Source of the DNA: Flectonema sp. DT1601
Lineage: Eukaryota
Direction of reading: 5' to 3'
Assembly: GCA_964019425.1 (NCBI GenBank)
Contig: OZ025787.1
Location: 62,001 to 126,000 of the forward strand
Length of the DNA stretch: 64,000 bases
The notes under the pieces were generated by a model that did no database searches, was not told the DNA's origin, and worked only from the letters and a program-made list of their open reading frames with translations. Each line of letters starts with the position of its first letter. Positions within the stretch are counted from its first letter, which is position 1. Both the position numbers and the translations under genes were made by a program. This document shows, in pieces, positions 2,963 to 64,000 of the stretch.

Positions 2963-4028
2963 TCAAAGAAAGTAGTCAGGTGTTCTCGTAACAATATCAT
3001 GACCGTCTCCTCTGATAGGCGCTGGGTCAAATTGAAAGAATGTTTTATTCATATGTTCATCCACTTCCATCAGTGCAGCCTGTTGTTTAATTGATAATCT
3101 TATTCAGAAACCTTCCAATAGTAAAATATAACATACCTGATTACCACAACGGTAGCAGTAGTTCGGAGCACTGAAGATTGTGACAACCTGCTGCTCGTGG
3201 CACCAGTTGTATCCCTGTTTTTGGTAATTATTTGTATTTCTAAAGAAAAGAAAAAAATGCTAAACAACAAAACAATGAAAAAACAAATACCTCCATCACA
3301 AGCTGGTGAGCTCTAGCCACCAGGGTTAGATTATTATTTCTATTGAATTGTGAAGTGATATCAGCTCCGAACGTGAACCCAGCACCGCGAGGGGATACGC
3401 CCCAACCTGGTTTTTCATCTTCGTGGGGATCAGACCAAAGGAGATCACACATTGGGCCCTCATGAGGAGTCTCTTGAACTCTTTCTAATTGTCTAATGTG
3501 ATCGAGTGTATCTAAAGAAGGAGAGAGTCCTCCATGAAGACAGAAGATTGATGATTGAACAACAGCTGTCAGTGGCATAAAATCAAATAATTGAGTGAAC
3601 GCGTTCCAAACGTTAACTGTTCCATACTTCCTCATACACTCATCATAGAATCCATAGACTTGAGTAATCTGACGAGATTCATGATTACCTCTCAAGATAG
3701 CAATTCTATCCTTGTACCTGACCTTCAGTAGCAGAAGTAGTGTTAAAGCTTCAACACTATGATATCCTCTGTCTACATAGTCTCCCATGAATAGGTAGTT
3801 TGTGTCTGGTGGTTTCCCTCCAATTTTAAATAATTCGATAAGGTCATGAAACTGTCCGTGAACATCTCCACAAACAGTCACAGGTGCATTCACAACATGA
3901 ACGTTACTTTCTAAACTAAAAATATCCCTAGCTCTATCACACAATGAGATTACCTGATGTTCTGATATTGGTTTGCAATCAGAATAGAGCTGCGATATTA
4001 AATGTTCGACGTCGAATTCTTCATCCAT
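2963..4028 (-). CDS. PP2A-C: Ser/Thr protein phosphatase 2A catalytic subunit, 310 aa; exons 4028-3291, 3214-3137, 3079-2963
   Basis: PPP motifs GDVHG, GDYVDRG and RGNHE. Removing two GT-AG introns restores GYNWCH...[15 protein letters not shown] and the PP2A-type C-terminus TPDYFL*. Confidence 0.95.
3080..3136 (-). other. Spliceosomal intron, 57 nt (PP2A intron 2)
   Basis: GTATGT...AAACAACAG; removal restores CGNQ|AALMEV. Confidence 0.92.
3215..3290 (-). other. Spliceosomal intron, 76 nt (PP2A intron 1)
   Basis: GTATTT...CCAAAAACAG; removal restores the conserved QLVME|GYNW. Confidence 0.92.
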
Positions 4029-4865
4029 TATGATAAGAACCTTTTTATAAAATTGTAAAGTTATATTTCCTTATTAAGTAACGTTACAGTCTGTGAAGTC
4101 TGTGAGGTAGGATTGTTAATAGCCTGCGAGAATGAAATAAATAAACAAATCCATCGCTGGAAATCAATCACCACACAAGTGGAACGGAATAAGATTTGAT
4201 GGAAAAAAGTAAAAATAAGAAAAGCGAATTGATGATGAGAAGACATTTCTTGCGAGAGGGAAACAACAAACGTATATATTCTTTGAAAGAAAAACTAACT
4301 GGCGCACTACTCCGTGCGATAATCGCTAAAAACTCGTCTCAGGCATGTTAACGAAATGACCAAATCATTAAATACAGACGAGAGACATATAAACTTATAT
4401 AATTTCTTTTCTTTTTTATTTTTTCCAAAGCACCATTTTCTTCTTCTTCTTCTTTTTTTTTTTGACTTGCTTCTGCCGCGCTGCCTTTACGCGTATGAGC
4501 ATCTTTAGAATTTAGTTTTATTTTTCGTTTTTTCCCTACGAGCCACAAGCTGCGGGTTAAATTGACAAGTTGGAAAAGTACGTGAAAAAAAAAACGGATG
4601 GCGCAGTGTTTATTTATACACTGAAGAAGGAATAGATCTCACTCACTTCGTACATTCATTATGTAAGATAGAGAAAGTCATTATCAGTGTTTCAATTACA
4701 TAAAAGTATTACCAGCCAGCTGTTTGAGGCAAGTTCAGCCGACAACATCTGCTGTTGTTGTTACTAATAAGAGACATTGATGAGGTCTTTTTATAGTAAA
4801 ATAAAATCGAAAATGAACAGGACCTATAACACAAAAAAGCAAAAGAGAATTATGTAAATAAATTA

Positions 4866-5665
4866 TTATTTAGGAGGGGCGACGGCGCGGGCGACACCGT
4901 TAGACCAGTGGGCAGTTAGAAGCAGACGAAAGGCAACGCTTTTAATTTCCCAAAGCTTCATCAACTGGGTTGCCTGAGGAGTAAGTGCCTCTCCTTCCAT
5001 ACAGACTTTAGTATCAGCGAGTACGACAAGAGTTCCGTGGTCAAGTTTTACTTGAAGACCAAGCTTTGACAACTGGTCCATCATTTCGTGTCCAAATTGG
5101 TGAAGTGGACCCTTTGGAATGGTCCAATCCAATGTCGCTGGGCATCCAGCTCTAGCAAAATCACTTACCTCAAATGCCGCAAAATATTCTTTTATCTCCT
5201 TCTTCGGTCTGTTTGTAAATAAAAGCCCACATGAACCATTGAGTCTACGCGCCAACTTCCACAAGTTGTCCTTATGAGATTCCTCCTTTGCTCTTCCCAA
5301 CGAGACAGCCATAACTTTGTTGTTTCCCATAAATATTCTGCTGTCATTGAGATCTTTTCTCACCTGTTTTATTTACTAATTGGTTTCACTTGTTACAAGT
5401 AGTGAAGTGACTCCAATATAATAAATTAATTCATACCTGAGTAATATGAGTGGTTCTAAGGTTCTCATAATCAAAGGTGTAACAGTGATCGAATTCATCA
5501 GCAGCCTGTAGTGTTTTAATTGTTTTGAACACTCTTGACAAAAACAACAACAAATAGAAATTAACAAACCTCTCTAATATTCTCAACAAGGTTCTCCTTG
5601 TGCTCCATTCCCTTTGGCTTGGTCTTTGTGAAGGTTGGCGCCTTTGTTCTTTTACTCTTCGGCAT
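4866..5665 (-). CDS. MRT4: Ribosome assembly factor / mRNA turnover protein 4 (uL10/P0-like), 220 aa; exons 5665-5570, 5505-5437, 5363-4866
   Basis: N-terminus MPKSKRTK...TKTK, then SRIFMGNNKVMAVSLGR, GLLFTN, DFARAG and VCMEGEALTPQATQLMKL, typical of Mrt4. Two phase-0 GT-AG introns join the exons in frame. Confidence 0.92.
5364..5436 (-). other. Spliceosomal intron, 73 nt (MRT4 intron 2)
   Basis: GTATGA...AAATAAAACAG; in-frame join HITQ|VRKD. Confidence 0.88.
5506..5569 (-). other. Spliceosomal intron, 64 nt (MRT4 intron 1)
   Basis: GTTTGT...AAAACACTACAG; in-frame join NIRE|AADEF. Confidence 0.85.
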
Positions 5666-5922
5666 TTTGCTTTGATAAGTGTATACTACTGTGTGAGGAG
5701 AGGATAACAATAAGATTTAGTGATTACAATGAGATGATGATCAGAGTGTGTTTGTCTTAGCGGTCATATTTTAATTGTTATTTCTGAAATACTAAAAACA
5801 TAACTCATCAACATAAGAGAAGACAAATATCAAAATAAAGTGTAAATAGCATTCACCCACATGATGGTGACGGGGGAGTGGATAACAAAACAGAACAAAA
5901 CCAAAACCCAGCTGCTGTCATT

Positions 5923-8373: not shown

Positions 8374-10673
8374 TATTATGCAAAGTGTACTGTAGAAACA
8401 ATAAATATAAATTCCTCACCATGCAGATAAGAATCGACAGTACGAAACAGATGCGGCGGAATGCTCGTAATATAAAAACTAAAATCTCCACCTGTTCTCC
8501 AAACACAACGCAAAGCAAACATATTAAATAGTAGGTAATGTTTTCTTTTTTAATTATCACTGCAGCTTTTTAATTTTCCCCTTCTTTTTTTTGTTTTTTA
8601 AAAAACAAAAGACAACCGCTTTCAACAGCTTTCGTAAAACACAACCGCCGACAAAGACTTACAAAAACTAAAATACAAACTTAATCTTTGATCACATTAT
8701 AAGAACGTAAGCATTTTAATTTTCTATGGAAATGAAGAGCGATCGCTGCTGACTTTCCTACTAAGGAAATCAAACGATGATGTTTCAATCCAGGGGTCCG
8801 CAGTATGCAACATAAGAATACGAAAAAACGAGGCAAGAATAACAAAAACAGGTGACAAGACACGCACAAGCCGGGGGAAAGAAAAAAAGAAAACAATAAG
8901 GTGTAGAAATTCATCTGAGAAGTGCAAGGCTGGTCAGCCAATTGATGTGCTAACTTCATTTTTAACACTCGCTTATACAACAATGAAAGAATATTTAAAA
9001 ATATCGTTAAGGGCGGGGAGTGGCATCACAATCATTCGCAAAAGATGAAAACAAAACTAAACAAAAGGACCAATACTTTAATAAGTGACTCACGAAATCT
9101 TCGTTTGTATTTTCTGAAAGAAAGCTTGTTGGAGTGAAAAGAGACTAAAAAAGGGGAGCAACTTGACACCGAAGTGCTGCCTTTTCAACTTTTCTGAGGT
9201 CTTACACTGAAAGAAATACGAAAAGGAAAGGTCTTATATCAGCGGTAGCATTGTACACGGTTGCAAAATGAAATACCACTGGAGGCCACGTGAACATAGT
9301 TAAACACTTCTTGACTATGTTATTGTAATAACTCATAAGTGACTGATACATAATAAATTAAAACTTTTCTGAAAAGTAACCAATCTGGTTTACCCTCAGG
9401 GTAAGGGAGGGGCTGCTCTATGAATAGTCACACGGTTGGGTAGTAGGCAATGTTAATATGAAAACTTCAGAAAAGGTTTCCGAAGCGGGCAAGCATCGGT
9501 AAATAATGCGCATTTACTTCACTAAACAACGCGTAGAAGAACGTTGTTAACCCGCATTTGGTCAACAGCAAGAAAATCGAAGAAGCCGTCATAAATATAA
9601 AACAAAGCGCCTATCTTGTATTGGTCTAGAAATAACACCCTTTAGAAATAAATACACGGGGTGGACAATAGAAACGAATGTTTTCTAATATTCACTCCCA
9701 GGATGTAAAGAATGGGTTTCCTATCGACCTCACAATAGAAAAAAAAGAAGAGAGAAATGATTTAACTGCTACCGAAAATTGCCACGCCGAAGGCGATTTG
9801 CTTTCTATTGGAAAAGAACACAACTGAGATTGGATAAAAAACTAAAGTTAGAAAAGGAAACTTTTTATTAGTGCTAACACTACCACTATAATTCGGAAAT
9901 GTTGCGGGGGGTGAGTAGTCTCCATCTCCCACCGCAATGTAGAACTAAATACATCTTTTAGTGTTTTCAACAAACGGGAACATACTCAACGATATTAGTC
10001 CTTCAGATATCAGACCATCGAAGAACTGTAATAAAAACACTTTCATGGGTCTGTCAGTAGCAATGAAGGGGAACAAAAGAAGCTGTAACACCTGAACGAA
10101 ATAGGCGTTGCTAGGAACTCTTACAGACGTTAAAATAATTAGAACTATACCGACATTCGAGAAACGGGAGGGAAAGAGATTTCGTTTCTTCTCAACAGAG
10201 CCACCTCAAAAGGTTGAGTTTGTCCACAATGGGACTGAACATGAAACAGTTTGTTATCGACCAACAGAATAATAGTTGCCTCTTATGATGATAATTATTA
10301 TTATTATTTCATTTTCTTTTTTTTAAATAAATAGTTTGTGTAAATCTGCCGTCATGCTCAGAAAGGAAAAAAAAAGAAAAATGGAACAAAGAGTTCCAAC
10401 AAAAGAATTATTTTCCACAGCGAAGAATATACACAATTCGCTTGCTCAGTCTATCAATGAGTTTTTGTTACACATTGGCGCAAAAAAAAAAATTTTTTTT
10501 TTTTGAATTAGCTCCAACTCATGCTGCTATCGTTTTTTTTTTTTTTTTTTTTAATAAGAAGAAACGAAACTATCACAAAATAGATTCTCGAAGCCAAAAG
10601 GGGAAAAAGAAAGGGGGAACCAATTACGCACACAGTTAACACATAAAGTCACTCACAGCGCAGGGAACGCTTA

Positions 10674-11945: not shown

Positions 11946-12297
11946 CTTATGAAATACTTCTGTGAGTTAGTAAGTAGTAAAATGATAATCAAGGTCAACT
12001 GTTGGTGAAGGTCACCTGCTCTCTAATATTGATGTTGTTTACCTGAGTTGAGAGGAAGCTGAACTATAATTAACACAGCTGTGAGAACGGTTAAATAATA
12101 ATAAGACATTCAATAAAAGAATGATAAGTGTGTAGTTTAGTTTGTTATTTTACTTTTCTTCTGTGGAAGGGCCGAAAGGCTACCACAACGAATGGATCAA
12201 AAAAAAAAAAAAGTACTTTTTACTTTCGTTAGCAACTCAGCATAGCATTCCTTGTAAGAGATAGCTGACTGCGTTTATTCCAAGTAGTGGTTTTAGC

Positions 12298-14202: not shown

Positions 14203-15873
14203 TTTTTTTTTTTTTTTTAGTACTAAAAAACTAATTGAATTCACATTTTTAACTCAAATTTTGACCAAAAACAAGATATGAAGAGAGTAAACGAAACTGA
14301 AAACATAGCACTAAGAATTTTTTTTCCCCAGACCTCATTGCTTAAGAACGTGCCCGCAATCTGTTAATTATTTATGGCAGAATCGATGAAAAATAAAACT
14401 CTCCAGTTAACAACAATTTCTCGAAAATTGATGACCGTGAAGAAATTCTTTTTCTCGACTAATCGAAAAATACTACGCCATTAGTTATCAAGAATGCACT
14501 TCGAGCAACCGGACTCCAGCAACGATTTCCTTTTAATTTTATTATTTCACCAAAAGCAATTTTCAAACTTCAAGACTCAGTTAGCCATAACTGGTTTTTC
14601 CGATTTATAATAAATAAGTTGCGAATTGAACACGCAGCTTTGAAAAGTAAGTTTATACTTTTTCCAACAGCAAGCTAATACTGGATGGTGGCTGGGGGTG
14701 ACTTGAATAAATAATTCAAGGTTAACACGTAACAAATTAGACATAAATCATAATATGGATTCCGTCCGTGGGGGGGTGATAGGGAAAAAGAAACTGATAA
14801 AAAAAAGAGATAAAACCGCAATACTTTTTCTTTTTTTTTTTTTGATATAGTTTTTTTTGTTTTTGCTTTTATCAGTTAGAATTCTATCTGAAAAAATTAG
14901 ATAGTTAAAAAAAAAGTGTAAACTGTATACAAAGTTTACCTCTTGTGGGCGGATTTAGAGAAAACAAAAAAGAACGTTGATTCAAGTACGCACCTTCTTA
15001 TTTTAGGCTTCATGCTTTTTGCAGGGGTTTCAGATGTGCAACTCGTGTAAAAGCTTTGTGACCTTACCTCTTGAAGGCAATTATTCATAGTTAAAGTAAT
15101 AAGATAATTACCGTAGTCTACACTATGAATCTTATATCACTCAGAGAGAACACGAGAGATGACATTTCAAAATGGGATAAAAAAATGGGATAAAAAAAAA
15201 ACAAAAAAAAAACAATATAACGAACAAATCGTTAAATGAATCTAATGGACAATAATACATTCAAATAAAACATGACAGACAAAAATGATGCAGTCTGATC
15301 ATGAGAAAATGATTTTTGAATTGTTGAAATAAAAATAGACTCACAAAGTAAGCACACCTGTTGATTTTACAAAAAAAAAAAAAAAATAATAATAATAATA
15401 ATAATAATAATAATTATTAAAGACAATCCAAGTCGTTATCTAACTTGAACAAACATAAATAAGATCAACTATACATAGCAAACCGGCTACACACTTTTCA
15501 TACCTTATGCAGTCACTATCTCAATTTGAGAAAGTAGCTTTGCGGTAACACAAAAGATGCAAAGTAATTTATGGGAAAAAAAAAAAAAAAAAAAAACTTG
15601 ACCGTCTGTGAAGCAAGTGATTAAAAGTGAAGAAAAAAGCGCAAAAATACCAACTGGAAAATCGACGACTCACATCCTTTGAGTAGTAACAGTGAAAACC
15701 ATCACTACAATAATCCCATCACATAAAATAGTACGCACAAGTGAAGTTGGTTTTACAACACGCACATAAACCATAACCAGAATATTATTATTATTTAGTG
15801 TTTTATCCAATATTTTAGATACATTATTCGAATTCGCGCATGGATAAAAACTTTGATAAATTAAAATAAAATA

Positions 15874-19182: not shown

Positions 19183-19607
19183 CGTTTTGGGGAGGGGCTG
19201 TGATAAAATAAATTAAACCATACTTAACAAGTTATCCAACCAATGCATAACATTTCTTTTATTCAAACGACCTGTACATGAGAAATTATAAACATTGCGC
19301 CATAAGAACAGATCTAATTATACTCAGAGTAATACAAAGGGTTCTTTGTATATTTTATTTTTTTATTTTCAGTTAGTAAGCCTGGCAGATAGTAAAGCTG
19401 AGGGAAGATACAAAAACAACCTCTCTGATAACAGCTTTCATTGAGGTGAGTCATCGTGTAATAATATCTTTAAGACTAAAGGAGAGCACAAGAACAATGA
19501 AGTCGAGGCATTTTCTTCAAAGCTCCCCCACACATGGAAGTAGTAATCAATTTGATCGAATTACTAAATAGTTAACGTTAGCGACAATCATAAAAAACAG
19601 ATCACAA

Positions 19608-20591
19608 CTACGACTTCTTTTTCTCATCGGTACTTTGAACTCTCTTTCCGAAATAGTTATGTAGAGCGACACCTAAAAGAGATATGACGCACCCAAAGAC
19701 AAACTGAATCCTGTTGGTGTTATTGTAAGTCAAGAGGTAATAGATTACAAAGTCTTATAAAACATACCTGACTGGTGTGCCAATAAATATCCCAGCTCCA
19801 ATCACAACAAGTGATCTTATAGCATTAGTCATTGAGTGAGTAAGAGGAGATAAGATTGTCAGGTTGTAAAAATTTGAGAGTTCCATCCAAGCGACACCAA
19901 CCACCGACAATACTATCGCCAGAACTGGAAGTGATGACAACCGTTCTGGAGAATTAATAATATTAATTATAGTCGGATGCTCAATATATAAAGCAATTGG
20001 TATAAATATAGAAAGTGATGTAAGCTGAAGCTTTATTAAATTACCAGCTGGATTAGGTGCCAAGACAGATTTTCCAAACACAGCTCTAGAGGCATCAGCA
20101 CAGGTGCATAGCAATGCTGCAACTGCTCCGATGACATCTGTTCCTCCATCTTGGAACGAAAATGCGTTGGAATTGTTTACGGCAATCCCAACACCAATCA
20201 CAATTAATATTAATGAAGTTATTGACGGTACCTTAGCACCAAGGAATATAAAACCCAATCCAGCGGTTACAACGGAATTTAGCGATTTAATCGTATGCAC
20301 TACTGGGATAGCAGTGTACATTAACGCAGTCTTATGAAAAGCATTGCCACTTATTTGACAGACTGATATCGGAAGTAATTTTGTTACTGTTGCGGTTTCT
20401 TTCTTCACTTTATCATTCTTAATAAACGATAAAAACAGTAATACCAATAGTTGAGCAGCCATTCCCATAACACTAGCTGTGAGAGGTAGTGAAAACCCCT
20501 CGTTTAGCATCTTTTTTGTCCAAATGTTATTTACAACACTTCCAGCAAACCACATCCCAACAGAAATTACCAAATGAAATGTGCCAACCAT
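19608..20591 (-). CDS. Triose-phosphate/nucleotide-sugar transporter family (DMT/TPT), 308 aa; exons 20591-19768, 19710-19608
   Basis: Multi-TM protein with NIWTKKML, HTIKS and LSPLTHSMTNAIRSLVVI motifs of the TPT family. The intron supplies the last TM helix (FGCVISLLGVALHN). Confidence 0.85.
19711..19767 (-). other. Spliceosomal intron, 57 nt (TPT gene)
   Basis: GTATGT...AATAACACCAACAG; phase 2; restores the final TM segment. Confidence 0.85.
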
Positions 20592-22905
20592 CTTATTCAC
20601 AATACTGTAATATAGACAAGGTTAGATACGTAGATAAAGAAATCAATTACATTGCGTATTGTGTAACTACAATAGAGCTACGAGGCAACAGCAACGCAAG
20701 TTGACCCAATCTTGTTATGCTATTTGTCAGCAGGTTACTGCAATATGATCAAACTGGAGGAGTTACTTCCTATCATGATTTATTTCTGTAAAAGAACGAA
20801 GCTAAGGTACTCTAATCACATTTTAGAAACACAGAACGTATTTGAATTACTACGTCGGATTAATTATTAGTTTTAATTACTCTCTTCTTCTAGCGGGGAT
20901 TAATTGCTTTGATTTGAACACAACAACTGTTTGTCTAACTTATATCATAACACAAAACGATAAGTTAAAGATGCAGTGAACTAACTATTTAGGGTTTCGA
21001 GAGTAATCCATATACCTCTTTACTTCTATTCTCATCATCAGTAATGATGTAGAATGATGTCAGTCAACTATTGTGACTAAATCACTTCAATGGACAAGTG
21101 GGGTGGAGTTAACCCTTTTTTTGATTGGATTTGTAATAAAATAAAAAAAACTTTTTTTTTATTACTGCAAAGCACTACTGGTGGAACAAATTGTAGAAAA
21201 ACAGTAATAATTGTTTTAAAAAATACTGACTTCTTTTGACTCAAAAATCAGGAAAAAGCACACACGACAACAGTTAAAACTGAGAAGGATGACAGAAGAT
21301 TTAATTTCAGTTCAGAACAGTTGCTGAAACGCTAGAAAACGTACACAACAAATACAACGCGGCATAAATATCCAGAAATCGTTGTTGAATTTGGTAGTTT
21401 GTGGGCCACATACAAGTGCTTTCGGTTCTCTTTTTTATTTATTTATTCCTTCTTATCATTTCCTTCGGGTTTTTTGTAACTCACATCAGTTAGTTAAAAT
21501 ATGAGTTTGTTATCAAATAGTACACTAAACTTAATTAGTATCAAAGCACATGATAACTGGTGGCAAGGATGCAAAAGAAAAGAACCCTTTTAGAAGAAAA
21601 GAAGGAAAAAAAAAAAAAAAAAACCTACCGAAAAACCTCCATCAAAGGGATTGAGGATTATTATTGTCTTTTTTTTTCTGTGTTGAGAGGAAAAAAAGAC
21701 GGTTTACTCTTTATATTATTATTAATCAATGAACGAGTTCCAACAACGAAGTAATTTCACACCTCTAAAAGCAATAATTAGTAGGAAAGAAGAAAGATTT
21801 CACTGACAGTAAAGTCAATCTTCAAAGAAAAGAAAAAAAAATTAAAAAAAGCACACATTCAGTCACCGATCCGAATAGTACTAACCCGAACTCTAAAAAT
21901 GAGTTTTTCTATAAAAAGAAATAATAACATTTTAATTAATTCACGGCTGAGATCGCCTCTTTAACTTGTTTCTACCACACTGATATATGAGCGAAGCAAC
22001 ACGGGAAGTGAGATCAGCAGTAGCGACCTCCTTGAAAAACTAATAATACAAAAAAACAGTAAGTCAATCTAAATCACTACAATGTTTTGCGTTAATAGAG
22101 AGATAGAGAGATTAAGTCTCAGCAATAAAGAAATCCATTTCCACACTTTTGAAGGATACATTTCAACAACAGAAGCAGTTGAAAGTGTTGAAATAACGAC
22201 TGGTGTGAATCCGATTTTTGTGTTGTTCTAAAAAACAAAAATTACGGTTTTATCTCAACACTCAGAAAGCTATAAAACTGATGACTTCTTTTGGTGCGAA
22301 TGAAAACAGACACGGCGCCTTTGGTGGTCATGTTTTTACACTCTAACTTCACTAACCTGAGCTGAGGATTAATCTTTTTTCTTAGACGAATATTAGTTTT
22401 AAAAATTGCAAACAAATGAATAGATGAGGAAATTTGGAGTCAAATTTTCTCTTTTTTGTTTGCTTTTTACGACATTATTAAAAAAAAAAAAAAAAAAGGG
22501 AAAAATAATTTTGAATAAAAGTTATGTATCTTCTGTGATAGTAGTCAGGCCGTTTTTTTTTTTTTTTTTGTAGAAATCGTCTGTTGGTTAGGGCAAAAAA
22601 AAAAAAAAAAAAAAAATCTTCATTAGTTTTTTTTATCTCTTATATTCGATTTTCAATTGATAGTAAATACGGTTATTGCGCTACATTAAGCTAAGAAGGT
22701 AGAGTATTCTCTTATTTGATGCGATCACGTAAGTTTAAAGTGAAATAGAACTTTTTAAAAGTCCCTCTTTACTTTAACATTAGAAAACATAAAAAACAAA
22801 CTTACAATAAAACATGCATTCAAAGGAAGGGGGAGAATAGGGGTTTTTTTTTTTTCCTCCAGAAAAAAGCGTGTTATTGTTTATAACACAAGCATACTAA
22901 TTATG

Positions 22906-35170: not shown

Positions 35171-35433
35171 GTTGTTATTGCTGCATGTGTCTGTAGGAGG
35201 GAATTGATGCGACCATTCACAGGAAAGGTATGAATGAAAGTGCTTTAGGATTTTGTCATTTTCTTGTTTGTCTAAACTTCTGAAGACTGAAGAAGAAAGA
35301 TAATATGAAAGAGTTGATACTTGTCATCCTACGAAGAAGGTTTGCAGTAACCTATCAGTAAAGAGTCAGCTCCAACAGGGAGCAATCGAATAGAAATAAA
35401 TAATTACAACACATCAGCACATCACCATGCATG

Positions 35434-38653: not shown

Positions 38654-38759
38654 ATTGTTATCGCTTTTTTTGATGGAGGGGAAGAAAATTAATTTAAAAA
38701 AAATAGTCCGTCGAATTACTTCCAATAAATCCAGTAGTCACTATGACTGAAGAAGGTGA

Positions 38760-40190
38760 CTACGGAGGACAGTTGTAAGGAAGCGGGTCTTGTTGAAAAC
38801 CTCTTCCGTATATGAACGCTGATATTAAATAATTATTAGAATTTCGTAATGAAAGCGTTGCTTCAGAAGAACTAGATGAGAAGTTATATAAAGGAGGCTG
38901 TTGATTATCTTCTGTGACAGGTGATGTGATAGATACTTCAGGAATTATCTGATTTGCATCATAAAGAGAAGCTCCTTTGATATGAATCGACAATGAGACA
39001 ATACCTCTACTTGAGTTCTTTGAATTAAATGGTCGATAATAATTATTACAGTCATCTCCTTCACAGAATGCTACTCCGCAAACCATTGATCTCCAGTGTT
39101 TAGGACATCCACCTCCAGTATCAAAGCCATCTAAAGCTACTAAGTAGTAAGATGTATTCTCATTACTGTCTTTATTAAGATTCGCATTAACATCACAACA
39201 AATATTATTAACACAAAGACTACCTGAAAGTTGATTTGGTTTCAGTTCCTTCAACAGCAGTTGCTGCCACTCTGAATCCTGAAGAGGGAGGGCTAGAGGG
39301 TGTTGAATTGTTGGTATTGAAGGGATTCTGTCTATGGATTGTTTCTTATTGGGGGTGTTACTGTTGGTTAGGTTTATTTCAGTTACTTTAATTACATTTC
39401 CAATACCAGGATTGTAATACCAGCTGAGAACATTTCCGTTTTGGAATACTCCGGAACCAGTCATGTCGGTTCCGTAGTTGTGATTACTTATAACTATCGT
39501 TTTATTATTAATAAGAGACCAACCTTGAGCGTAGGCTAACACTTGCATCTGTGGCATCACGTTTGACCATGCGACTGGTAAGATAAACACGTCAACTTGT
39601 TCTTTGAAGAGAGCTGATTGAGGGTAACCAAAAACTAAGTCAGCACACGTCATTATTCCAATTTTTATCTGACTGTCACTCCCCGTTGGAGTAATTCCAA
39701 AGTACGTCGCATCGCATGTCTTTGGAGTAGAAAATGAAGGTTCTCCCCATAAATTCATCTTTCTGTATCGAAGCAGCAATTTTCCAGTTGGAGTAAGAAC
39801 TATATTTGTGTTGTATTGATCAGAACCATCTTGTTCCGCGATGTTTATTAAAATATAAATAGAAAGATTTCTCGCAGCACAACTAGCCAGTTTAATAATT
39901 TCAGGTGATCCCTGTATGTCACACGGGATTTCATTTAATAAAGAGTTAGAAATAGTTACTGTGTATCCATCCCAATCATTTGGGAATCCTGTAATGCCGT
40001 ATTCAGGAATCACCATAATATCAGCACCTTGAGTAGCCCCATCACTGATTAAGTCTAAGCAAGAATTCATGTTTTTTATAATTGTTTGTTGAGGTGTTGC
40101 CGCATCTTCACCAGCTCTGAACTCAACATATCCAACTTTCAGGGAATTTGATATCACCATCGAAGTTAGTAAAGTTGTTATTGTCATCAT
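38760..40190 (-). CDS. Vanin/biotinidase-like carbon-nitrogen hydrolase (pantetheinase-like), probably secreted, 476 aa
   Basis: Nitrilase-fold triad GADIMVIPE, YRKMNLWGE and GIMTCADL. QYNTNIV motif. Cys-rich vanin-type C-terminal domain (LCVNNICC, MVCGVAFC, YGRGF). Confidence 0.85.
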   Translation of the reverse strand: MMTITTLLTSMVISNSLKVGYVEFRAGEDAATPQQTIIKNMNSCLDLISDGATQGADIMVIPEYGITGFPNDWDGYTVTISNSLLNEIPCDIQGSPEIIKLASCAARNLSIYILINIAEQDGSDQYNTNIVLTPTGKLLLRYRKMNLWGEPSFSTPKTCDATYFGITPTGSDSQIKIGIMTCADLVFGYPQSALFKEQVDVFILPVAWSNVMPQMQVLAYAQGWSLINNKTIVISNHNYGTDMTGSGVFQNGNVLSWYYNPGIGNVIKVTEINLTNSNTPNKKQSIDRIPSIPTIQHPLALPLQDSEWQQLLLKELKPNQLSGSLCVNNICCDVNANLNKDSNENTSYYLVALDGFDTGGGCPKHWRSMVCGVAFCEGDDCNNYYRPFNSKNSSRGIVSLSIHIKGASLYDANQIIPEVSITSPVTEDNQQPPLYNFSSSSSEATLSLRNSNNYLISAFIYGRGFQQDPLPYNCPP

Positions 40191-40214
40191 TTTATTTTCC
40201 AGTAAAACGTCAAC

Positions 40215-40237
40215 CTGAATGAAAAACAGTAAACATC
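40215..40237 (-). promoter_or_regulatory. Putative trans-splice acceptor upstream of the vanin-like gene
   Basis: GATGTTTACTGTTTTTCATTCAG, 24 nt before the ATG at 40190. Confidence 0.45.
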
Positions 40238-40654
40238 AACTTAACTATTAACAATAGGTCACTACCACAGAACAAATATAAACCTGTTTACCAGGTTTTT
40301 CTCCCTTTTTTTTTCTTTTTGAAAAGTTCTTTTTCTTTAAAAAAAAAAACTAAAGGGGATTCACACCAGTAAGCAGTTCCCATGAGGGAGAACTCATCAC
40401 GTGTACGACACTTTGCGATACAAACGAAAGACTGATATCCTAACAAATAAAAAGCTTCACTACAAAACATTACTCGGGTCGGCAAGGCAACGTTAATTGT
40501 TGAATACAACAGCAAGAAAAGAAACAGCGGCAAGAATGACAAGTTAGCTTTCTAATACTCAGCAATTCCCATAGACGTACCCATCAGGGTGTCTTCATTG
40601 TCGTTAACTCGCTCTGAATACATATCATCCAACCATTCTCAAGTAAGTGACTAC

Positions 40655-41165
40655 CTACCCAAGTTGTACAGATGATCCACAGCTGCATGTTTGGTACGAA
40701 TCGTCATCGGGTTTCATGACCTGAAATGTCTTTGCTTTCATTTGCTCTTGGAAGTCAATCTGTTTGTGGCTTTATTGATTAGTTTCAAGTATAGAAATCA
40801 CAAGTTGTCGTAATCAGATGACCTTTTGAATAGAAATCTAAAATAATAACATTACACACCAGTGATCCACTCAACATTCCCATCAGACTTTTGTCCACAA
40901 TAAGTTGAGCTCCGTCTTTTTCAAATTGAGCGTCATTCTCACCAATTGAGTTCTCCCAAACAAATTCATACTTACCACCAAGACAACCTCCAGTTACTAC
41001 TTTCAATCTTAATATTGGTTGACTGTCATCAAGTGCGTTTTGGTGATGAATCCTTTCAACACATCTATCAGTCATTGTGACTATTCCAACATCAGGTGTT
41101 ACTGCTTTTTTGAAACTCGATGATGCTGCTCGGAGTGATCTCACTCCGAATGATAATCTCAACAT
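40655..41165 (-). CDS. ISA2: Mitochondrial Fe-S cluster assembly protein, IscA/Isa2 type, 136 aa; exons 41165-40860, 40759-40655
   Basis: Arg/Ser-rich presequence and LRLKVVTGGCLG. The spliced exon 2 supplies IDFQEQM...CSCGSS, the conserved Cys-x-Cys motif. Confidence 0.88.
40760..40859 (-). other. Spliceosomal intron, 100 nt (IscA gene)
   Basis: GTGTGT...GCCACAAACAG; gives GSL|IDF. Confidence 0.85.
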
Positions 41166-41196
41166 GTTTTATTTGTTGTTTTTTGCTGGAGAAGAT

Positions 41197-41217
41197 CTGA
41201 AAAAGAGTAAGATGAGT
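41197..41217 (-). promoter_or_regulatory. Putative trans-splice acceptor upstream of IscA
   Basis: ACTCATCTTACTCTTTTTCAG about 31 nt before the ATG at 41165. Confidence 0.45.
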
Positions 41218-41629
41218 TGTGTTCCATGACGACTCTCAATTCTAAACATCTCATTTGAAAATAATCCTAGTGAGAGATACAACAAAACTTTATTATGAAG
41301 CACGTAGTCTTATCCAACTATTACTAATCTATTATTCAGAACAAAGATGAAATATACGTACAATTTATTATTCTTTCTTTAACGGTTGTTTACACGATTC
41401 TATTTTTATATATATTTATTTATTAGGTTTCTTTTTTTTCTTTCTTAAATTAATTCTATTTTCGAAGTCTATTTCAAATAATATGATATCCCTTTTTTCT
41501 CGGGGGAATCTTCTGAGTTAAAAAATGATAAAAAAAGAGACAATCCCTTGTTTGAAATGTGCAATGACAGTCAACAAGGTACAATTCGGATTTAGGATAA
41601 TTGTCCGCATTGCTTAACATGAGAGAGTG

Positions 41630-42913: not shown

Positions 42914-43695
42914 TGTAAGGTTGTTTCCTGTGAAAAGTAGATATGTTTGCTTACTGAGAAAATGAAGACCACCATCAACAACCTCCTAACTTCGCACAAG
43001 TTATTCATAGCTGGATCGTAGTATGTAAGGAAGCTGCGCATCGCAATAAAATGGAGAAACAGAAACTCAGGGTAAATGGAAACGAGTAAAAGGGCAAAGC
43101 CAACAACCGAGCTTCTTGTTTTTGAGTCGGATAAACTGAAAATGAAGGTTTTCCGAGTCTTTCAAAAAGTTATAAACTCTGAAGTACCAACATAGTTGGA
43201 AATGGATTTGTTAGGCTGAAGTACTATTCGGTTTACTCCAACACTAGAAAGAAGAAAACAGTTTAGAGTTCTTTTGTTGTGGTAGCAGACGAGACAAAGC
43301 TCTCGAGACACAGACTTAGGAATTGATTAGCCAGAGACTCAATTCCTATTTGAGTCTCTGGGTGGCGTAAATCAACAGAAGACGTTAGAGTAATAACACA
43401 CCCAGTAGTGTAAAGTAATAGAAAAGGTGATTGTCTGCTCTGCATCCGAAATTTGACCTCAACATAAGTAACTCCTCCTTGCGGGTAATCTCATGAAACT
43501 CACGTTAGAAACAAACAGATAAAGGCAACGAAATGCATGACTCATGTGAGTCAAAAAGAGAGGGGAAAGGTTAAGTTAAATCACAGTGTACTTCCTAAAT
43601 AGGAATTTAGGAGTCTATTCTAAGAGAAATCATTGTCATTGTAAACAATAACACTTCCCAATTAGAGTAAAGGTTGTATAAAGTGATTCAATTCG

Positions 43696-45769: not shown

Positions 45770-45800
<31 letters not shown>

Positions 45801-54591: not shown

Positions 54592-54797
54592 TTTGATGTG
54601 TTGTGTGTGTGTGTGGTATCTGTTTGAGAGGAAGTATTTAAAATAATATAATTCATCGAATAATTTAGATCACTTTGAGAACCCGTAGAGGTCGTTACTT
54701 ACAACTGCGAAGATAGTGTTGTCAGCAGAGTAGATTGATTGGAATTAAAATTATAAATACCGTCAGATGCGAGCCTTTGAAAACCACCTAAGCTTTG

Positions 54798-57075: not shown

Positions 57076-59022
<1,947 letters not shown>

Positions 59023-59333
59023 TTTGGGTAATGAAACTAATTGAAAAATAAAGAAACAATAAAAAGTAACATTAAAAGCGCAAGTATGGAAAAACAATCA
59101 CTCCATCTTTATTGAGGGCTGTAGAATAATAAAATATACAATAACTAACCCAATAACTTGATTACATTAACTGGTTATTGTTTTGCGCCTTAACCACAAC
59201 AATGGTGGTAGGCAGCATTATTTTCGGAGAAAAAGCTCAGGAGTTCAACGTAAATACAAAGCAAACTGTTGTATTTAACAATTTCACTAATAAAGAGAGT
59301 GAAGGAATCATTTACTGTCAATGAGGTTTCTGA

Positions 59334-61691
59334 TTACTCTGTTGGTGGACGAGGAATAGCGAGATCTCTAAATATTTCCAGTGTTTTCGTTACTGTCTTC
59401 TCACCAATGTTACCATCCTTTCGCGATCGTACCGAAACTGTTTGGTTTGTAACTTCTTCGTCACCTACTACGAGGACATAATTATATTGCGCCATTTGTG
59501 CATTTCTAATTTTCTTCCCCAGCTTTGCATCACTAGTGTCGACTGCGACTTCGAAACCCTCACCGAATAACGTGTCCTTTACTTGTTGTGCGTACTCAAG
59601 TTGCTGTTCTGAAACAGGTACAACAATTGCCTGGCGAGGTGATATCCAAAACGGCCATTTTCCCATCCAGTGCTCCGCTAGAATAGCAATGCAACGTTCA
59701 AGAGATCCGAATATCGCTCTGTGAATCATTACAGGTCTCTCTTTACGATCTTCCTCACCAGATGCTGATTTCTCGTATGCTAAGTCAAATCTCTCAGGTA
59801 GATTGAAGTCAAGTTGTAAAGTACCAAGTTGGTGCCATCCTGTTTGTGAGTGTTTGTGTGCTAGTTAACACTCTCCACGGCAGGGCAGTAGAAGGTGTGG
59901 ATTGTTTCTTAAAAAGATAAAACATAAATAATAAAAAGTATACATACTCATCATACAGTCTTCAATACGAATATCTATTTTCGGTCCATAAAACGCACCC
60001 TGACCAGGGCTAACGGTCCATATGTGACGAACCGTCTCTTGAATGTCAGAGTTGGTTGCCATTTTTGATTTAAGACTATTGACATGAGATGGTGAACCGT
60101 CGTAGATGGAGTCTGATAGCTGTTCGGGAATACCACAGAACTTGTTTAAAGCTCTTTGAAGGTATGCTTCACTCTTATCCCAAACATCAGGAGTACCTAG
60201 AAAATTGTCTTCCGGTCTCGTTGAGAGAGTTAATTGAAATTTGAATCCCAATATGCTGTACACGTGTTCAATAAACTTCAGAGCATTTTCAATCTCAGAC
60301 GTTACTTGATCAGGTCTGCAGAAGATATGAGCGTCGTCTTGACAAAATCTACGAACTCGTGTAAGACCACTCAGGGCACCAGCAAGTTCATTTCTGTGAA
60401 GAGCACCGAAGTCAGCGAATCTAATTGGTAATTCTCTGTAAGAACGCCTAGTGGATGAGTACATTAAACAGTGTCCAGGACAATTCATTGGTTTTAGAGC
60501 GTAGTTTTCTTTGTTGTCTTCTCCCTCACTGATGCGATACATGTCATCACTGTACTTAGTCCAGTGACCTGATGTTTCCCATAACTTCTTGTTGTAGATG
60601 TTTGGAGTGATAACTTCATCAAAACCACGTTTTCGATATTCTTTTCTCATCCAATCAGTTAGTTTGTTGTAAATCTTTGTTCCATTTGGAAACCAAAAAC
60701 AAGACCCAGGAGAATTCTCATGAAACATCCACAAGTTCTGTTGAACTCCAAGTTTTCGATGATCATTCTTAGCTGCCAATTCCATCGCCTCCTTCCATTG
60801 AGTTAAAAGTTTTTCTTGTGGAAATGAGATTCCATACATTCTCTGAAGTACTGGATTGGTTTCTTTATTTCTCCAGTATGATGATGAATTCTTGTGTACA
60901 GTAAGTGCTTTAACCATACCAGTGTGTGGTAAATGAGGTCCTTGGCAAGGATCAACTAGTGGACCACAACGATATACTACACAGTTGCCTTCATCACTTA
61001 CCTTGCTTTCTAAAGTAGCAACCTTGAAAGGGTTGTATTGGAAGAGCTTTAGGGCATCCTTTTTTGAAACAACAAGACGTTGAAACGGATGTTTCTTAGA
61101 AGTTATTTCTTTTACCAAGCTTTCAATCGACTGATAGTCGCTTTCAGAAATTGGATTTTCAGTTTGTGCCTCGTAGAAGAAGCCGCCATCACTGAGTGGG
61201 GGACCCGTTGATAGTTTTGCTCCATATTTCCATTCCATGGCTGCTCCAAGGATGTGTGCTGATGAATGCCAAAATACCTCAGGACCGTCAGAACTTTCCC
61301 AATCAAAGAGTTCGACTGTGCTGTCACACTCGAATGGCCTTCCCATGTCCCAGAGTTGTTGGTTTACTTTTGCTCCAACCATTTTTGCAGCCATCGAATT
61401 ACTAATTCCCTTTGCGATGTCCAGCGGAGTTGTCTTAAAGGCAATTGCGGAAACCTCACCGCCATTTGGAAGAGTGATTGTAATCGGCTTCTCTTTTGCT
61501 TCATATTCTAATCTTTGTTTCTCAAACAACTCATCAAAAGCAGCGATTCGATCCTCCCAGAAACTTGGTAATGGAGGCAGCTGTGTCATCTTATTTACTT
61601 TAGGCTGCTTCAAGATTGCAACCGACCTTGAGAAGCATCTCCGCTGTGACCACTGCGTCAGTTGAATAAATGATAAACGTTGAAAGTTCAT
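59334..61691 (-). CDS. TARS: Threonyl-tRNA synthetase, 749 aa from the ATG at 61691; exons 61691-59948, 59839-59334
   Basis: TGS domain, FWHSSAH, KPMNCPGHC, GLTRVRRFCQDDAHIFC, GAFYGPKID. The spliced join gives RWHQLGTLQLDFNLPERF, followed by MIHRAIFGSLER and the anticodon-binding domain. Confidence 0.95.
59840..59947 (-). other. Spliceosomal intron, 108 nt (ThrRS)
   Basis: GTATGT...CACACAAACACTCACAAACAG; phase 1; restores the conserved catalytic-domain sequence. Confidence 0.92.
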
Positions 61692-62807
61692 ATTTGTGTT
61701 ACATAAGTGAAGCAACTGTTCAAAAGAAATGAACCAAGTAATGATTTCATTACTTAAAATATGTTTAAGAAATCGAAACAATAATAAGAGGAGGCGGAGA
61801 AGGGGATACGGGTAGTGACAAAGAGACTCTTGAGAACAAACCAAAACACTGGTCGAAGCTGCACAACAAGCGACTAGAGGGATGCTGCGATGCTGATAGC
61901 ACATCACAACGCGCTGTTTTTGTAGATCTAAAGAAGGGAAAGTCTTAGAACATTATCTACGACTTTCCATATGAATGTACAGCTACGCACATCTCGGATA
62001 CGGAGCGGTAAACGCTTGCGATTGAAGGAAGGTTGAATTGTTGACGGCCACCATAATCGCAAAAGGTACAAACAGGTAACACGACCAACAAGAGGACAGA
62101 AAACAACCGTGAAAGTAACACACGGCAGGTCGCAGAGACCACAAAACAACACTTCGACTGAGACTCCACTGCTGAGGAAAGAATTATCGGAAACCTCATC
62201 AAGAGACTGAAGGAAGTTGAGATGTTGATGGCACATCACAACGCGCGTTGTTTTAGACTAACGACATTAAGTGAGCATCAAAACAACATTTATTGTTCTA
62301 TTTATATACATAACAGATATATGCAATCTTATCATTCCACATTCCAGAGAGATCTCTTCTTCAGTTCGCAAGTGGTATCGAGTTGCCCATTGAGCAGTCC
62401 ATACCCGCAGCGTACTAAGCGACCGATGTGCCAACACAGAACTGGCAGTATCGCCAACTTGTTGGCTCTGTTTGTCCTCAAGAACTAACAGCTGACCATA
62501 AACACAGCAGCACAACACCTCTCAAAGTTTATCTTACCTGTTTTTTTGTTTTATTGGAATGTATTACTTTAATCTTTAGTTTTATTATTTCAGTAAACTA
62601 AACTACTTTCATACCTCGGCTAACGCTTCGTTGGTTTGCTAACGTCTTCTGAACAAATAAAACTCTCATACCCTCAGTATACATAAATCACAATACAAAA
62701 TTATCACATTACGGACTAACAGTGTCGTGTTATTATTTAATGTTCTATACTTCAACATAGAGTCAACTACTCACCTCTCCATAACTAAAAACAGGTTGTC
62801 TTCAGGA

Positions 62808-64000
62808 CTAGTGTGGAGCTCCAAAAGGACTCGCTGCTGAATTCTCAAGAAGCTCTTTAAGCAAAAAGAAGAAACGATCGAAATCCTCAATGCTTCCTCT
62901 AATTCGCTTCACTTCTACTAGAGTTCCTTTACTTACTGTTGGAAGAGAAAGGATGCTGTAGGCGAGCTGTGTTTGTGAATTTAAATTTATTTCCAATCTC
63001 ATACAAAATTTAAAAATACATAAAAAAGTAAAACACTCCAATAACATACAATCCCTGCTTCTGTATTTATAAAACCTTTCACTTCAGAACTGAGATCCTT
63101 TACTTGCGGGTTTCCGTTTAGTTCAAGACATGCTCTAGTGATTGTCTGTAAAGTATCAGTAATATGAGCATCAAGTAATAGTGTTCCCATTAGAGTCTTT
63201 TCATTGTGACGAAAGCGGCTTTCAACATCAAAAGAGTTAAGACGAGCTGGTGATGATGATGATACTTGTGAATATGTTGGAGATGATTGTGAAACAGAAT
63301 CATCATCGTATCCCATTTCATCAAAACTGTGAAAAGGATCTTCAGCCATCCCATCTTCAGGAACGATAATACTCTTTCTAGCTTCATTCAGAAGGGACAT
63401 ATCAAAATCTTTACGAAACCATTTGTGTTCAACAACATTATCTAAAGTGATTCTCTTCATAGGATCTTTTGTTAACAATCTCTCAAGTAGATTATTAGCT
63501 TCAGGTGTAACGTGGTCAGGTACTCTATAATTTCCATTTTGGATGGTATCAAACAAAGCACCTGGATCATCGTCATCATCGAAGGGAAGAGTTCCAGTAA
63601 CCATCACATAGAGAATAATACCACAAGACCATATATCAGCTGGTACTCCATTGTATCCTCTTTTTGCCAACACTTCTGGAGCAACATAGTTTGGAGTTCC
63701 ACAGATAGTCTGCAGAAGATTATCACCTCCTTCTCGACCCCAAGATTGGATGTTTGCAAATCCAAAGTCAGAAATTTTTAAAACACCCTTCTCATTCAGC
63801 AATAAATTCTCAGGTTTTAAATCTCTGTGAGCAATTCCCTGATTATGACAGTATAAAACTCCCATAATTAGTTGATGGAAGTAGAACCTCGCCTGGTCCT
63901 CTGTGAATCTACCAGCGTCTTTTATCTCATTAAACAACTCACCCCCCGCAAATTCCATAATTAAATATATACATCTCGGTGTCTGTAAAACATCTTTAAG
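62808..64000 (-). CDS. SNF1/CIPK-like Ser/Thr kinase (CAMK group); 5' end lies outside the window; exons >64000-63050, 62966-62808
   Basis: HRDLKPENLLL, DFG and TICGTPNYVAPE. NAF-like PARLNSFD. The spliced C-terminal domain LVEVKRIRGSIEDFDRFF resembles the CIPK C-terminal/KA1 domain. Confidence 0.9.
62967..63049 (-). other. Spliceosomal intron, 83 nt (kinase)
   Basis: GTATGT...TTCACAAACACAG; phase 0; AGI|LAYS. Confidence 0.85.

Follow-up and report, generated by a model that had tools for sequence, protein, structure and literature searches.

A-rich intron acceptors and U-rich candidate spliced-leader acceptors in a gene cluster of a diplonemid close to Flectonema neradi

The introns of a diplonemid gene cluster have been found to end in acceptors preceded by an A-rich tract, whereas the candidate acceptors of the spliced leader (SL) that lie upstream of the start codons are preceded by a U-rich one. 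Over positions -24 to -5 the cis acceptors have A 0.54 and T 0.20, and the nearest CAGs upstream of the ATG, available in 19 of 22 genes, have A 0.25 and T 0.48 (AUC 0.98, p 8e-6). Intron acceptors and predicted leader sites have in common a zone poor in G and an (A)CAG end, with A in the introns at the place of U in the leader sites. U enrichment of the trans tracts is moderate only; the part that departs from the background is the cis tract with its A-richness. The observation is real and is partly known already, as an A-rich tract has been published for Diplonema japonicum. Trans sites are throughout candidates picked by fixed rules upstream of the ATG, with a predicted role as SL acceptors, and all the statistics are drawn from a single window with 11 introns.

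Gene layout and inventory of the introns

The DNA of the window, which is the whole stretch of 64,000 nucleotides analysed, is nuclear and comes from a diplonemid, a marine protist close to Flectonema neradi. Its long ORFs form a one-directional cluster, with 24 of the 26 on the - strand, and introns are borne by 9 of the 23 coding genes examined. An exact look-up of 10 ORFs gave seven matches, all of them this assembly's own calls, and an Rfam search of the window, repeated for 61600-62900, gave no match. SL trans-splicing has been published for diplonemids and the SL is present on essentially all mRNAs of D. papillatum; the present diplonemid likely joins a leader to all its messages as well.

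All 11 introns of the original prediction have been recovered on the - strand with the last eight nucleotides it had given (Table 1), and its donors are confirmed as GTATGT in six and five variants occurring in one intron each. Eight donors start with GTATG, the consensus taken for comparison from the accessible part of PMC12621601, and the remaining three are one base off. Every intron has GT-AG ends with a 3' CAG. Protein colinearity after removal of the intron is residue-exact for eight introns and holds at the level of length for two, and the kinase intron is without such support; the three introns lacking residue-exact homology are thus 19767, 58940 and 63049.

The splice in the threonyl-tRNA synthetase (ThrRS) gene supplies exactly the three residues left between the two 4hwt_A alignments; an alternative donor at 59956 has been rejected, since this three-residue gap in homology is matched only by 59947. 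The IscA gene matches the TIGR00049 profile at positions 1-74 with exon 1 (to residue 101/102) and at 76-105 of 106 with exon 2. The 39 codons of 34327..34443 are missing from the orthologues P0123 (F. neradi) and P0125 (D. japonicum), both derived from transcripts. A protein from another genome (P0126) carries a read-through insert whose codons imply an intron matching this one in position and phase; it would start with a GTATG donor, be U-rich over its first half and end A/C-rich with ACAG. For the ankyrin-NACHT-pentapeptide-WD40 gene, any alignment was obtained with 75 of 80 homologues, and its intron is the least A-rich among the 11. Exon 2 of the translocator gene adds 33 aa that have no family match of their own, and the border is not residue-exact. 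The intron of the BILBO1-like gene is filled by a perfect (CAA)265 repeat (58093-58888) that reaches into the acceptor. Exon 2 of this gene matches BILBO1_N only from position 41 of 92 of the profile, which calls for a further exon upstream; for exon 1 there was no family match and only chance or no matches in PDB, and exon 2, used as a query, matched no protein but that of this window. Nothing useful came from Pfam, NCBIfam or the Atlas for exon 2 of the kinase gene, and exon 2 of MRT4 and that of IscA gave only chance or no matches in PDB. A metagenome scan with MRT4 yielded two loci, both intronless, which served only as alignment controls.

The annotated coding sequence contains 30 GTATG words, and besides 59956 two of these are followed by U of 0.50 and none by a higher value. 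Few short introns therefore seem to be hidden in coding sequence, and the search for leader sites extends to 5' UTRs of at most 200 nt.

Table 1. Introns and nearest-CAG candidate zones of the window (size is the intron length, or the distance from the candidate to the ATG)
Feature	Coordinates	Strand	Size	Remarks
PP2A catalytic subunit, cis intron 2	3080..3136	-	57 nt	donor GTATGT; flanking exons equal PDB 2iae_C residues 247-272 and 273-309, gapless
PP2A, cis intron 1	3215..3290	-	76 nt	2iae_C: exon 1 to residue 246, exon 2 from 247
MRT4, cis intron 2	5364..5436	-	73 nt	in solved Mrt4 chains, exon 3 from residue 56; intronless homologue L002 is colinear
MRT4, cis intron 1	5506..5569	-	64 nt	donor GTTTGT; exon 1 residues 1-32, exon 2 exactly 33-55
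Triose-phosphate-translocator family gene, cis intron	19711..19767	-	57 nt	exon 1 ends at profile 273/302 and 267/291
Ankyrin-NACHT-pentapeptide-WD40 gene, cis intron	31211..31281	-	71 nt	junction spanned by 45 homologue alignments
Conserved diplonemid gene, cis intron	34327..34443	-	117 nt	in-frame, stop-free
IscA/HesB family gene, cis intron	40760..40859	-	100 nt	donor GTGTGT; TIGR00049 match in both exons
BILBO1-like EF-hand gene, cis intron	58092..58940	-	849 nt	
ThrRS, cis intron	59840..59947	-	108 nt	4hwt_A aligned up to 233 and again from 237
Protein kinase gene, cis intron near 3' end	62967..63049	-	83 nt	removal restores 52-codon open frame
PP2A candidate	4091..4114	-	62 nt	nearest CAG; further CAGs upstream
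MRT4 candidate	5689..5712	-	23 nt	ACAG
Candidate	8390..8413	-	16 nt	ACAG
Candidate	11960..11983	-	14 nt	ACAG
Paraflagellar rod gene candidate	14297..14320	-	94 nt	
Ion channel gene candidate	19198..19221	-	15 nt	ACAG
Translocator gene candidate	20605..20628	-	13 nt	ACAG
Phosphatidylserine synthase candidate	24288..24311	-	23 nt	ACAG
Candidate	26487..26510	-	30 nt	in original prediction
DCC1 candidate	27897..27920	-	11 nt	ACAG; composition borderline
NACHT-WD40 gene candidate	34054..34077	-	14 nt	
Candidate	35181..35204	-	10 nt	nearest CAG; ACAG another 10 nt upstream
Candidate	38747..38770	-	93 nt	
Vanin-like gene candidate	40215..40238	-	24 nt	in original prediction
IscA gene, two candidates	41186..41220	-	31 nt (41197)	41197 in original prediction; 41186 is nearest CAG
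Candidate	42928..42951	-	14 nt	ACAG
PAN-domain gene candidate	54620..54643	-	28 nt	ACAG
BILBO1-like gene candidate	59119..59142	-	96 nt	ACAG
ThrRS candidate	61716..61739	-	24 nt	ACAG

Composition of the introns and choice of the acceptor

As predicted, all the introns end in ACAG (11/11, against 68 of 1193 intergenic sense AGs). The acceptors differ from the textbook U2AF type in having pyrimidines of 0.41 with a median longest run of 2. The claim that a polypyrimidine tract is lacking thus holds for the region before the AG; the introns do carry a U-rich tract, but adjoining the donor (U 0.61 at intron nucleotides 7-26, background 0.38). In the 10 short introns the A zone is limited to the last 20 nt or so ahead of the acceptor, the microsatellite intron (58092..58940) being omitted from the folding and bin tables. 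A or C occupies 53 of the 55 bases at positions -9 to -5, a window picked after the logo was seen. A/(A+C) is 0.73 in the cis tracts and 0.59 in the controls (p 0.001), which is above the expectation from avoidance of U and G and points to a positive A signal.

In 11/11 introns it is the first CAG that serves as acceptor, with no CAG among the 22 AGs that are skipped (p 0.005). In the PP2A intron 3290 a TTAG with 85% pyrimidines, 25 nt ahead of the A-rich acceptor, is passed over. The branch motif YTRAY is found 5-50 nt before the acceptor in 3 of the 11 introns and in 68 of 187 controls; published rates of branch motifs in diplonemids are likewise low, at 2-16%.

Candidate trans acceptors

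The candidate zones of Table 1 lie before the CAG closest to the ATG, at a distance of up to 100 nt. The set of 22 genes is without the kinase gene, whose start lies beyond the window, and excludes a short ORF at 43.9 kb (no family match, ambiguous start) that is retained in the 23-gene count of ACAG. Three of the 22 genes have no CAG within this distance, and non-CAG sites can therefore probably take the leader. Twelve of the 19 candidates end in ACAG, and an ACAG within 45 nt of the start codon is seen in 11 of 23 genes against 8.3% expected (p 7e-7). The pyrimidine-preceded AGs at 26487, 40215 and 41197, on which the original prediction relied, are present but atypical, all of them ending in TTCAG.

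Pyrimidines before the candidates exceed those before control CAGs (AUC 0.77, p 4e-5). The longest pyrimidine run has a median of 5, equal to that of the control CAGs, and there are no long uninterrupted runs. The intergenic sense DNA is itself T-rich (T 0.35-0.37). Donor-like words occur 40-130 nt upstream of 2 of 19 candidates and of 34 of 187 controls, a difference that is not significant.

Contrast between the two classes

The separation from the cis acceptors is retained when the nearest AG of any kind is taken (22/22 genes, AUC 0.96), when every AG within 60 nt of the start codons is included (54 sites, AUC 0.97) and, as a worst-case choice, when each gene is represented by its most A-rich AG at up to 60 nt from the ATG (AUC 0.95). 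Over four picking rules the AUC is 0.96-0.985 and the result holds without the microsatellite intron; with only seven of the homology-fixed introns it is 0.945-0.976. Both classes depart from the intergenic control CAGs (U 0.37), the cis acceptors downwards to 0.20 (p 7e-4) and the trans candidates upwards to 0.48 (p 9e-4). G is poor in both, at 0.05 and 0.06 against 0.17 in the control, and the picking rule imposes no G depletion.

The proposal of two acceptor patterns is hence sustained as a compositional split (AUC 0.96-0.98, rule-based), but ACAG is common to both classes. Its wording as A/C-rich versus pyrimidine-rich is better given as A versus U, since C is flat over -24 to -5 (0.21 cis, 0.20 trans, 0.19 control). 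A composition model of the trans type gives 2.9-4.2 bits to 4 of 18 intron-internal AGs (3240, 40823, 58912 and 59908). These scores fall in the upper range of the candidates, so the introns are not free of trans-like decoys. As the two classes are alike poor in G, the same model also gives a score above zero to 5 of 11 cis acceptors.

Possible explanations of the split

It had been suggested that composition separates cis- from trans-splicing and so keeps the leader off internal exons, a suggestion with which the one-directional cluster and the published SL trans-splicing of diplonemids agree. The split does exist in this window; of the two explanations still live for it, one is protection from the leader, given that ACAG is common to both classes, that U-rich decoys persist in the introns and that A exceeds what avoidance of U and G would give. 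From the sequence, we give somewhat less than an even chance to the reading that these are GT-AG introns whose A-rich acceptors are usable only from their own donor and are a poor target for the SL. The short introns would then be defined from the donor, with U1 on GTATG and a U-binding helper just downstream, and the branch would lie about 20-25 nt before the first CAG, where a U-tract would be unnecessary. Sites without a donor would recruit U2AF/PTB-type factors through their own U-rich tract and then accept the SL. In euglenozoan polycistronic RNA polyadenylation upstream is likewise directed by the signals for trans-splicing; the gene would therefore be cut in two by an intron with a U-rich end, and selection would keep intron ends U-poor and A-rich. 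Such addition of the leader at a cis acceptor is a documented risk in the PAP gene of T. brucei, exon 2 of which undergoes trans-splicing, with 3 such tags next to 13 for cis-splicing (PMC2926603), the more so after knock-down of U1C (PMC4041458). The U-richer trans acceptors of S. mansoni (PMC5832876) also favour this reading, and the near-identical acceptor logos of E. gracilis (PMC11170887) speak against it.

It is also quite conceivable, if somewhat doubtful, that short introns defined from their donor carry the A-rich tract as a positive signal for cis-splicing and that the difference from the trans sites is a by-product. A protein that binds A or CA may read the tract, or the tract may act as an unstructured spacer between the branch point and the first CAG, and U1 on the nearby donor may shield internal exons from the leader, as in trypanosomes. 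The A excess beyond avoidance, the near-exclusive A or C at -9 to -5 and the U-rich AG decoys remaining within introns all favour such a signal, as do the CA-rich intron motifs and A-rich tracts published for several diplonemids in the accessible part of PMC12621601, and the passage of the T. brucei PAP acceptor to trans-splicing on loss of U1C (PMC4041458). A positive signal alone, however, leaves unexplained why U, abundant 30 nt upstream in the same introns, falls below the non-coding background precisely at the acceptor. An arrangement of two acceptor codes for one spliceosome, U-rich through U2AF for the leader and A-rich through another factor for introns, appears unlikely on the sequence evidence. 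If true, it would let a polycistronic, fully trans-spliced genome keep thousands of introns, in contrast to kinetoplastids, which have one pyrimidine code only and retained three.

We consider it improbable that the contrast is overstated because the real SL sites lie elsewhere, introns with U-rich ends were missed or 11 introns are too few. The three introns without residue-exact homology and an intergenic sense DNA that is T-rich regardless lend this view some weight, but all the AGs near the starts still separate, the homology-fixed introns alone give the same result and the survey of coding GTATG leaves few short introns to be hidden. Pairing of the U-rich start with the A-rich end to join the splice sites, as in euglenozoan nonconventional introns, is very improbable. 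The two halves are complementary in composition and shuffled versions of intron 5436-5364 fold less well than the intron itself (z -3.6), but the two ends of one intron show no better pairing than ends taken from different introns (permutation p 0.58-0.71 for 15, 20 and 25 nt) and z lies between -1.1 and +1.8 in 9 of 10 short introns, by which this reading is largely refuted. Membership of the nonconventional (hairpin) class is likewise contradicted by the GT-AG ends and the lack of specific end pairing. Just as little is to be expected of a neutral origin of the tract, by slippage of A and CAA runs within a spacer free of constraint, a reading to which the (CAA)265 expansion in one intron and the common A runs of intergenic DNA might point; the non-coding sense DNA here is T-rich and the A zone is confined to the short stretch before the acceptor.

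Significance and relation to known systems

How a cell that performs SL trans-splicing as well as cis-splicing assigns each AG is usually answered by the presence of an upstream donor only. A near-complete A/U split would offer a sequence handle on this in a tractable organism (P. papillatum), would account for the poly(A) tracts left unexplained in D. japonicum introns in the accessible part of their report, and would bear on the retention of introns in diplonemids versus their loss in kinetoplastids. For gene finders in these genomes it gives the rule that an A-rich CAG is an intron end and a U-rich CAG a gene start.

Short intron-defined introns of fungi and Drosophila have a U-rich stretch between the donor and the branch region and none before the AG. 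Their layout is like the one described here, yet they are not known to have SL trans-splicing, so the leader is not needed for such a layout to arise.

GTATG donors and A-rich intron ends have been published for Diplonema japonicum (Thakur et al. 2025, PMC12621601). In the accessible part of that study its introns resemble the present ones in the (G)/GTATG donor, the CAG end, the short length, the weak branch motif and A as the commonest base where a pyrimidine tract would sit. Flectonema was not among the organisms of that study; its accessible part reads the A tract as flexibility of the spliceosome, and in it an analysis of SL acceptors, U-rich trans sites, a first-CAG rule and a U-rich stretch after the donor were not found. 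The accessible parts of PMC7859406, PMC2481429 and the bioRxiv reports 10.64898/2026.10.18.760011 and 10.64898/2026.07.29.740908 hold nothing on the question, and no literature was found in which the cis and trans acceptors of diplonemids are divided by A versus U.

One-directional clusters with a pyrimidine-preceded AG before each gene are shared with kinetoplastids (PMC2926603, PMC4041458, PMC11613528), whose three cis introns, unlike those described here, all have pyrimidine tracts. Trans acceptors or outrons are U-richer than cis ones also in Schistosoma mansoni (PMC5832876) and Ciona (PMC11155486), but as a graded difference in one pyrimidine-type signal with many dual-use sites, in contrast to the opposite A/U composition in the present window. 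Euglena gracilis (PMC11170887) is likewise a euglenozoan with many cis introns, SL trans-splicing and a CAG end in both classes; its acceptor logos are near-identical, with a C-rich tract shared by cis and trans sites, which is the opposite of the arrangement observed here.

Cis introns and their acceptors

The 11 cis introns of the original prediction have all been located in the sequence with the quoted ends and are regarded here as real; for 8 of them comparison with homologous proteins fixes the border to the exact residue (see table). Gene names such as BILBO1, DCC1 and IscA are taken from family-profile matches.

The ACAG end claimed for these introns is found in 11/11, against 68/1193 intergenic AGs. 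The zone at positions -24 to -5 before the acceptor is composed of A 0.54, C 0.21, G 0.05 and T 0.20, as compared to A 0.27, C 0.19, G 0.17 and T 0.37 in the same zone of the intergenic control CAGs (n=191). The acceptor used is the first CAG downstream of the donor in 11/11 introns; the 22 AGs passed over before it include no CAG (p 0.005). The proposed lack of a polypyrimidine tract holds directly before the acceptor, where the longest pyrimidine run has a median of 2, but not elsewhere in the introns: nucleotides 7-26 are 61% T against a background of 38% (p 6e-6), and intron 3290, named by its donor-side coordinate, bypasses a TTAG with 85% pyrimidine and uses an A-rich site 25 nt further on. 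Neither enriched branch-point words nor specific pairing between the two ends of an intron have been found in the introns of the window.

P0126, a genome-derived homologue of the conserved diplonemid gene at 34-35 kb, has a 33-codon insert at the position of the stop-free intron. The residues of the insert force a phase-1 GTATG start, its first half is rich in F, L, V, S, C, Y and I, and it has a T/H/N/Q run that corresponds to A/C-only first and second codon positions; at its end AG is possible only as ACAG. Removal of the insert restores the alignment to four other homologues. From the codons of this one case, rather than from its DNA, we infer an intron of the same style.

Many homologues of the ankyrin-NACHT-pentapeptide-WD40 gene, including P0143, are single ORFs that read through the intron junction; the intron at the NACHT-WD40 junction may therefore have been gained recently, its acceptor being already in the local style. 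The repeat in the BILBO1-like gene fills its intron and itself makes the acceptor tract, and gene callers that ignore this intron place the start codon in exon 2, as in P0135. The hairpin listed in the table could be the remnant of an inverted-repeat insertion.

Introns and other features of the window (window positions; all 11 introns lie on the - strand)
Feature	Position	Description	Border or basis
PP2A, both introns		exons = chain 2iae_C 179-246, 247-272, 273-309	residue-exact
MRT4, both introns		exon residues 1-32, then 23 residues, then from 56	residue-exact
ThrRS intron			fixed to residue by homology
IscA intron		exons = TIGR00049 1-74 and 76-105	residue-exact
Intron of conserved diplonemid gene	34443	117 nt, stop-free; absent from F. 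neradi and D. japonicum orthologues	residue-exact
NACHT-WD40 junction		spanned by 45 alignments; 75/80 homologues aligned	residue-exact
Translocator intron			missing profile length only
BILBO1-like intron			missing profile length only
Kinase intron			frame logic only
Repeat in BILBO1-like intron	58093-58888	perfect (CAA)265	
Intron with hairpin	5436-5364 (-)	sole intron (1/10) with long hairpin folding better than shuffles (z -3.6)	
Ankyrin-NACHT-pentapeptide-WD40 gene	34039-28593 (-)	1791 aa, one intron	
Intron-like segment no. 12	62614-62538 (-)	77 nt, GTATGA donor, A-rich ACAG end; between kinase and ThrRS genes; 35 nt after U-rich CAG	
Second, weaker intron-like segment	51633-51573		
ThrRS in-frame starts	61691 and 61589 (-)	34 codons apart, three CAGs between	
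Region without convincing gene	44300-53200	about 9 kb, many A and T runs	
Intergenic diverged direct duplication	56068-56239 / 56575-56757	74% identical	
Intergenic diverged direct duplication	61864-61934 / 62197-62264	80% identical	

Candidate trans acceptors and their contrast with cis acceptors

Candidate acceptors for the spliced leader (SL) were picked by fixed rules upstream of the start codon in 22 genes (23 for the counts of the words ACAG and TTCAG), the first in-frame ATG being taken as the start. ACAG is found within 45 nt upstream of the ATG in 11/23 genes, where 8.3% is expected (p 7e-7). A nearest CAG within 100 nt is present in 19/22 genes, and the zone before these 19 sites has A 0.25, C 0.20, G 0.06 and T 0.48. 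The depletion of G is at the level of the cis acceptors (p 3e-6 against controls), which suggests that these candidates function as acceptors and share the cis layout. The pyrimidine richness earlier attributed to upstream acceptors is borne out by the T content, but the tracts are only moderate, with a median longest run of 5 that equals the control median. The three sites then quoted all end in TTCAG, which is found at 4/23 ATGs; 12/19 nearest-CAG candidates end in ACAG. Most candidate sites leave just 10-31 nt of 5' UTR up to the ATG, and the 20 nt before the ATG of the 22 genes are A-rich (0.45).

The two classes are separated by A minus T of the acceptor zone, with an AUC of 0.96-0.985 under four site-picking rules, 0.97 against all 54 AGs within 60 nt of an ATG and 0.95 when every gene is represented by its most A-rich AG. 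A threshold of 0.10, chosen post hoc, correctly sorts 10/11 cis and 19/19 trans sites. The predicted compositional contrast is thereby confirmed with rule-picked sites (AUC 0.95-0.985) and sharpened to A versus U. Since G depletion is alike in both classes, ACAG is common in both, and A and T are opposite, the sequences point to a G-poor zone with (A)CAG as the common core and to A versus U as the switch.

Diplonemid context and possible mechanism

Compared with transcript-derived proteins, MCM6 of the window shares 91% identity with one from Flectonema neradi and 55-59% with those from Diplonema ambulator, Rhynchopus humris and Lacrimia lanifica, and the paraflagellar-rod and BILBO1-like genes are consistent with Euglenozoa; on these protein comparisons the source is therefore assigned to the Diplonemidae. 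The window has a GC content of 37% and 24 of its 26 long open frames are on the - strand. Gene clusters of Diplonemidae are described as co-transcribed, with SL on essentially all mRNAs (PMC10161547).

Half of the observation, the A-rich intron end, is already published: PMC12621601 describes diplonemid introns with GTATG donors, CAG ends and CA-rich motifs, A being the most frequent base in the D. japonicum tract and weaker in L. lanifica and R. humris, and reports U2AF1/2 as present. That study does not cover Flectonema, and its text mentions trans-splicing once. The intron tracts of L. lanifica, R. humris and S. specki are C-rich. A cis/trans acceptor comparison for diplonemids was found neither in the literature searched nor in the searched supplements of PMC10161547, whose Additional file 1 (introns, UTRs) may hold one, as may the figures and supplements of PMC12621601; the contrast with candidate leader sites appears to be new for diplonemids. 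In E. gracilis, cis and trans acceptors are described as sharing one C-rich tract (PMC11170887), unlike the A-rich cis and U-rich candidate trans sites of the window, whereas the trans acceptors of S. mansoni have more U than cis (PMC5832876), in the same direction as our candidates. Pyrimidine tracts are reported for every cis intron of kinetoplastids (PMC11613528), U-rich outrons for Ciona and shared acceptors for flatworms (PMC11155486, PMC12582326). Avoidance of spurious AGs is reported to shape acceptor composition (PMC10946897).

Separation of cis from trans-splicing by acceptor composition, as originally interpreted, is a plausible hypothesis. The most likely explanation, held tentatively, combines donor-defined introns with selection against U at their ends. 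Introns defined from the donor would do without a U-tract at their 3' end, sites without a donor would require one, and selection would keep U scarce at intron ends, which might otherwise be mistaken for gene starts. In this mechanism U2AF, PTB and a TIA-1-like helper would each have a part; the short introns of fungi and Drosophila are a parallel for this layout.

T. brucei provides a documented case of mis-trans-splicing to a cis acceptor: 3 tags at PAP exon 2 stand beside 13 intron-spanning tags (PMC2926603), and the effect rises after U1C knock-down (PMC4041458); trans-splicing is there coupled to polyadenylation (PMC2926603, PMC4041458). Against this explanation, 4/18 intron-internal AGs, at 3240, 40823, 58912 and 59908, look as trans-like as the candidates, and A in the cis zone exceeds the level expected from simple avoidance of U and G. 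The main rival, a serious possibility to which we give less credence, is that A is a positive signal and that protection from the leader is left to U1.

Additional features

Neither an ORF nor an Rfam family accounts for the intron-like segment no. 12. The region without a convincing gene lies within a one-directional cluster. The stretch after the upstream ThrRS start is basic and serine-rich, and we take it to resemble a mitochondrial presequence. Dual targeting of ThrRS through alternative trans-splicing is possible, as is reported for T. brucei IleRS in the title of PMC3273800.
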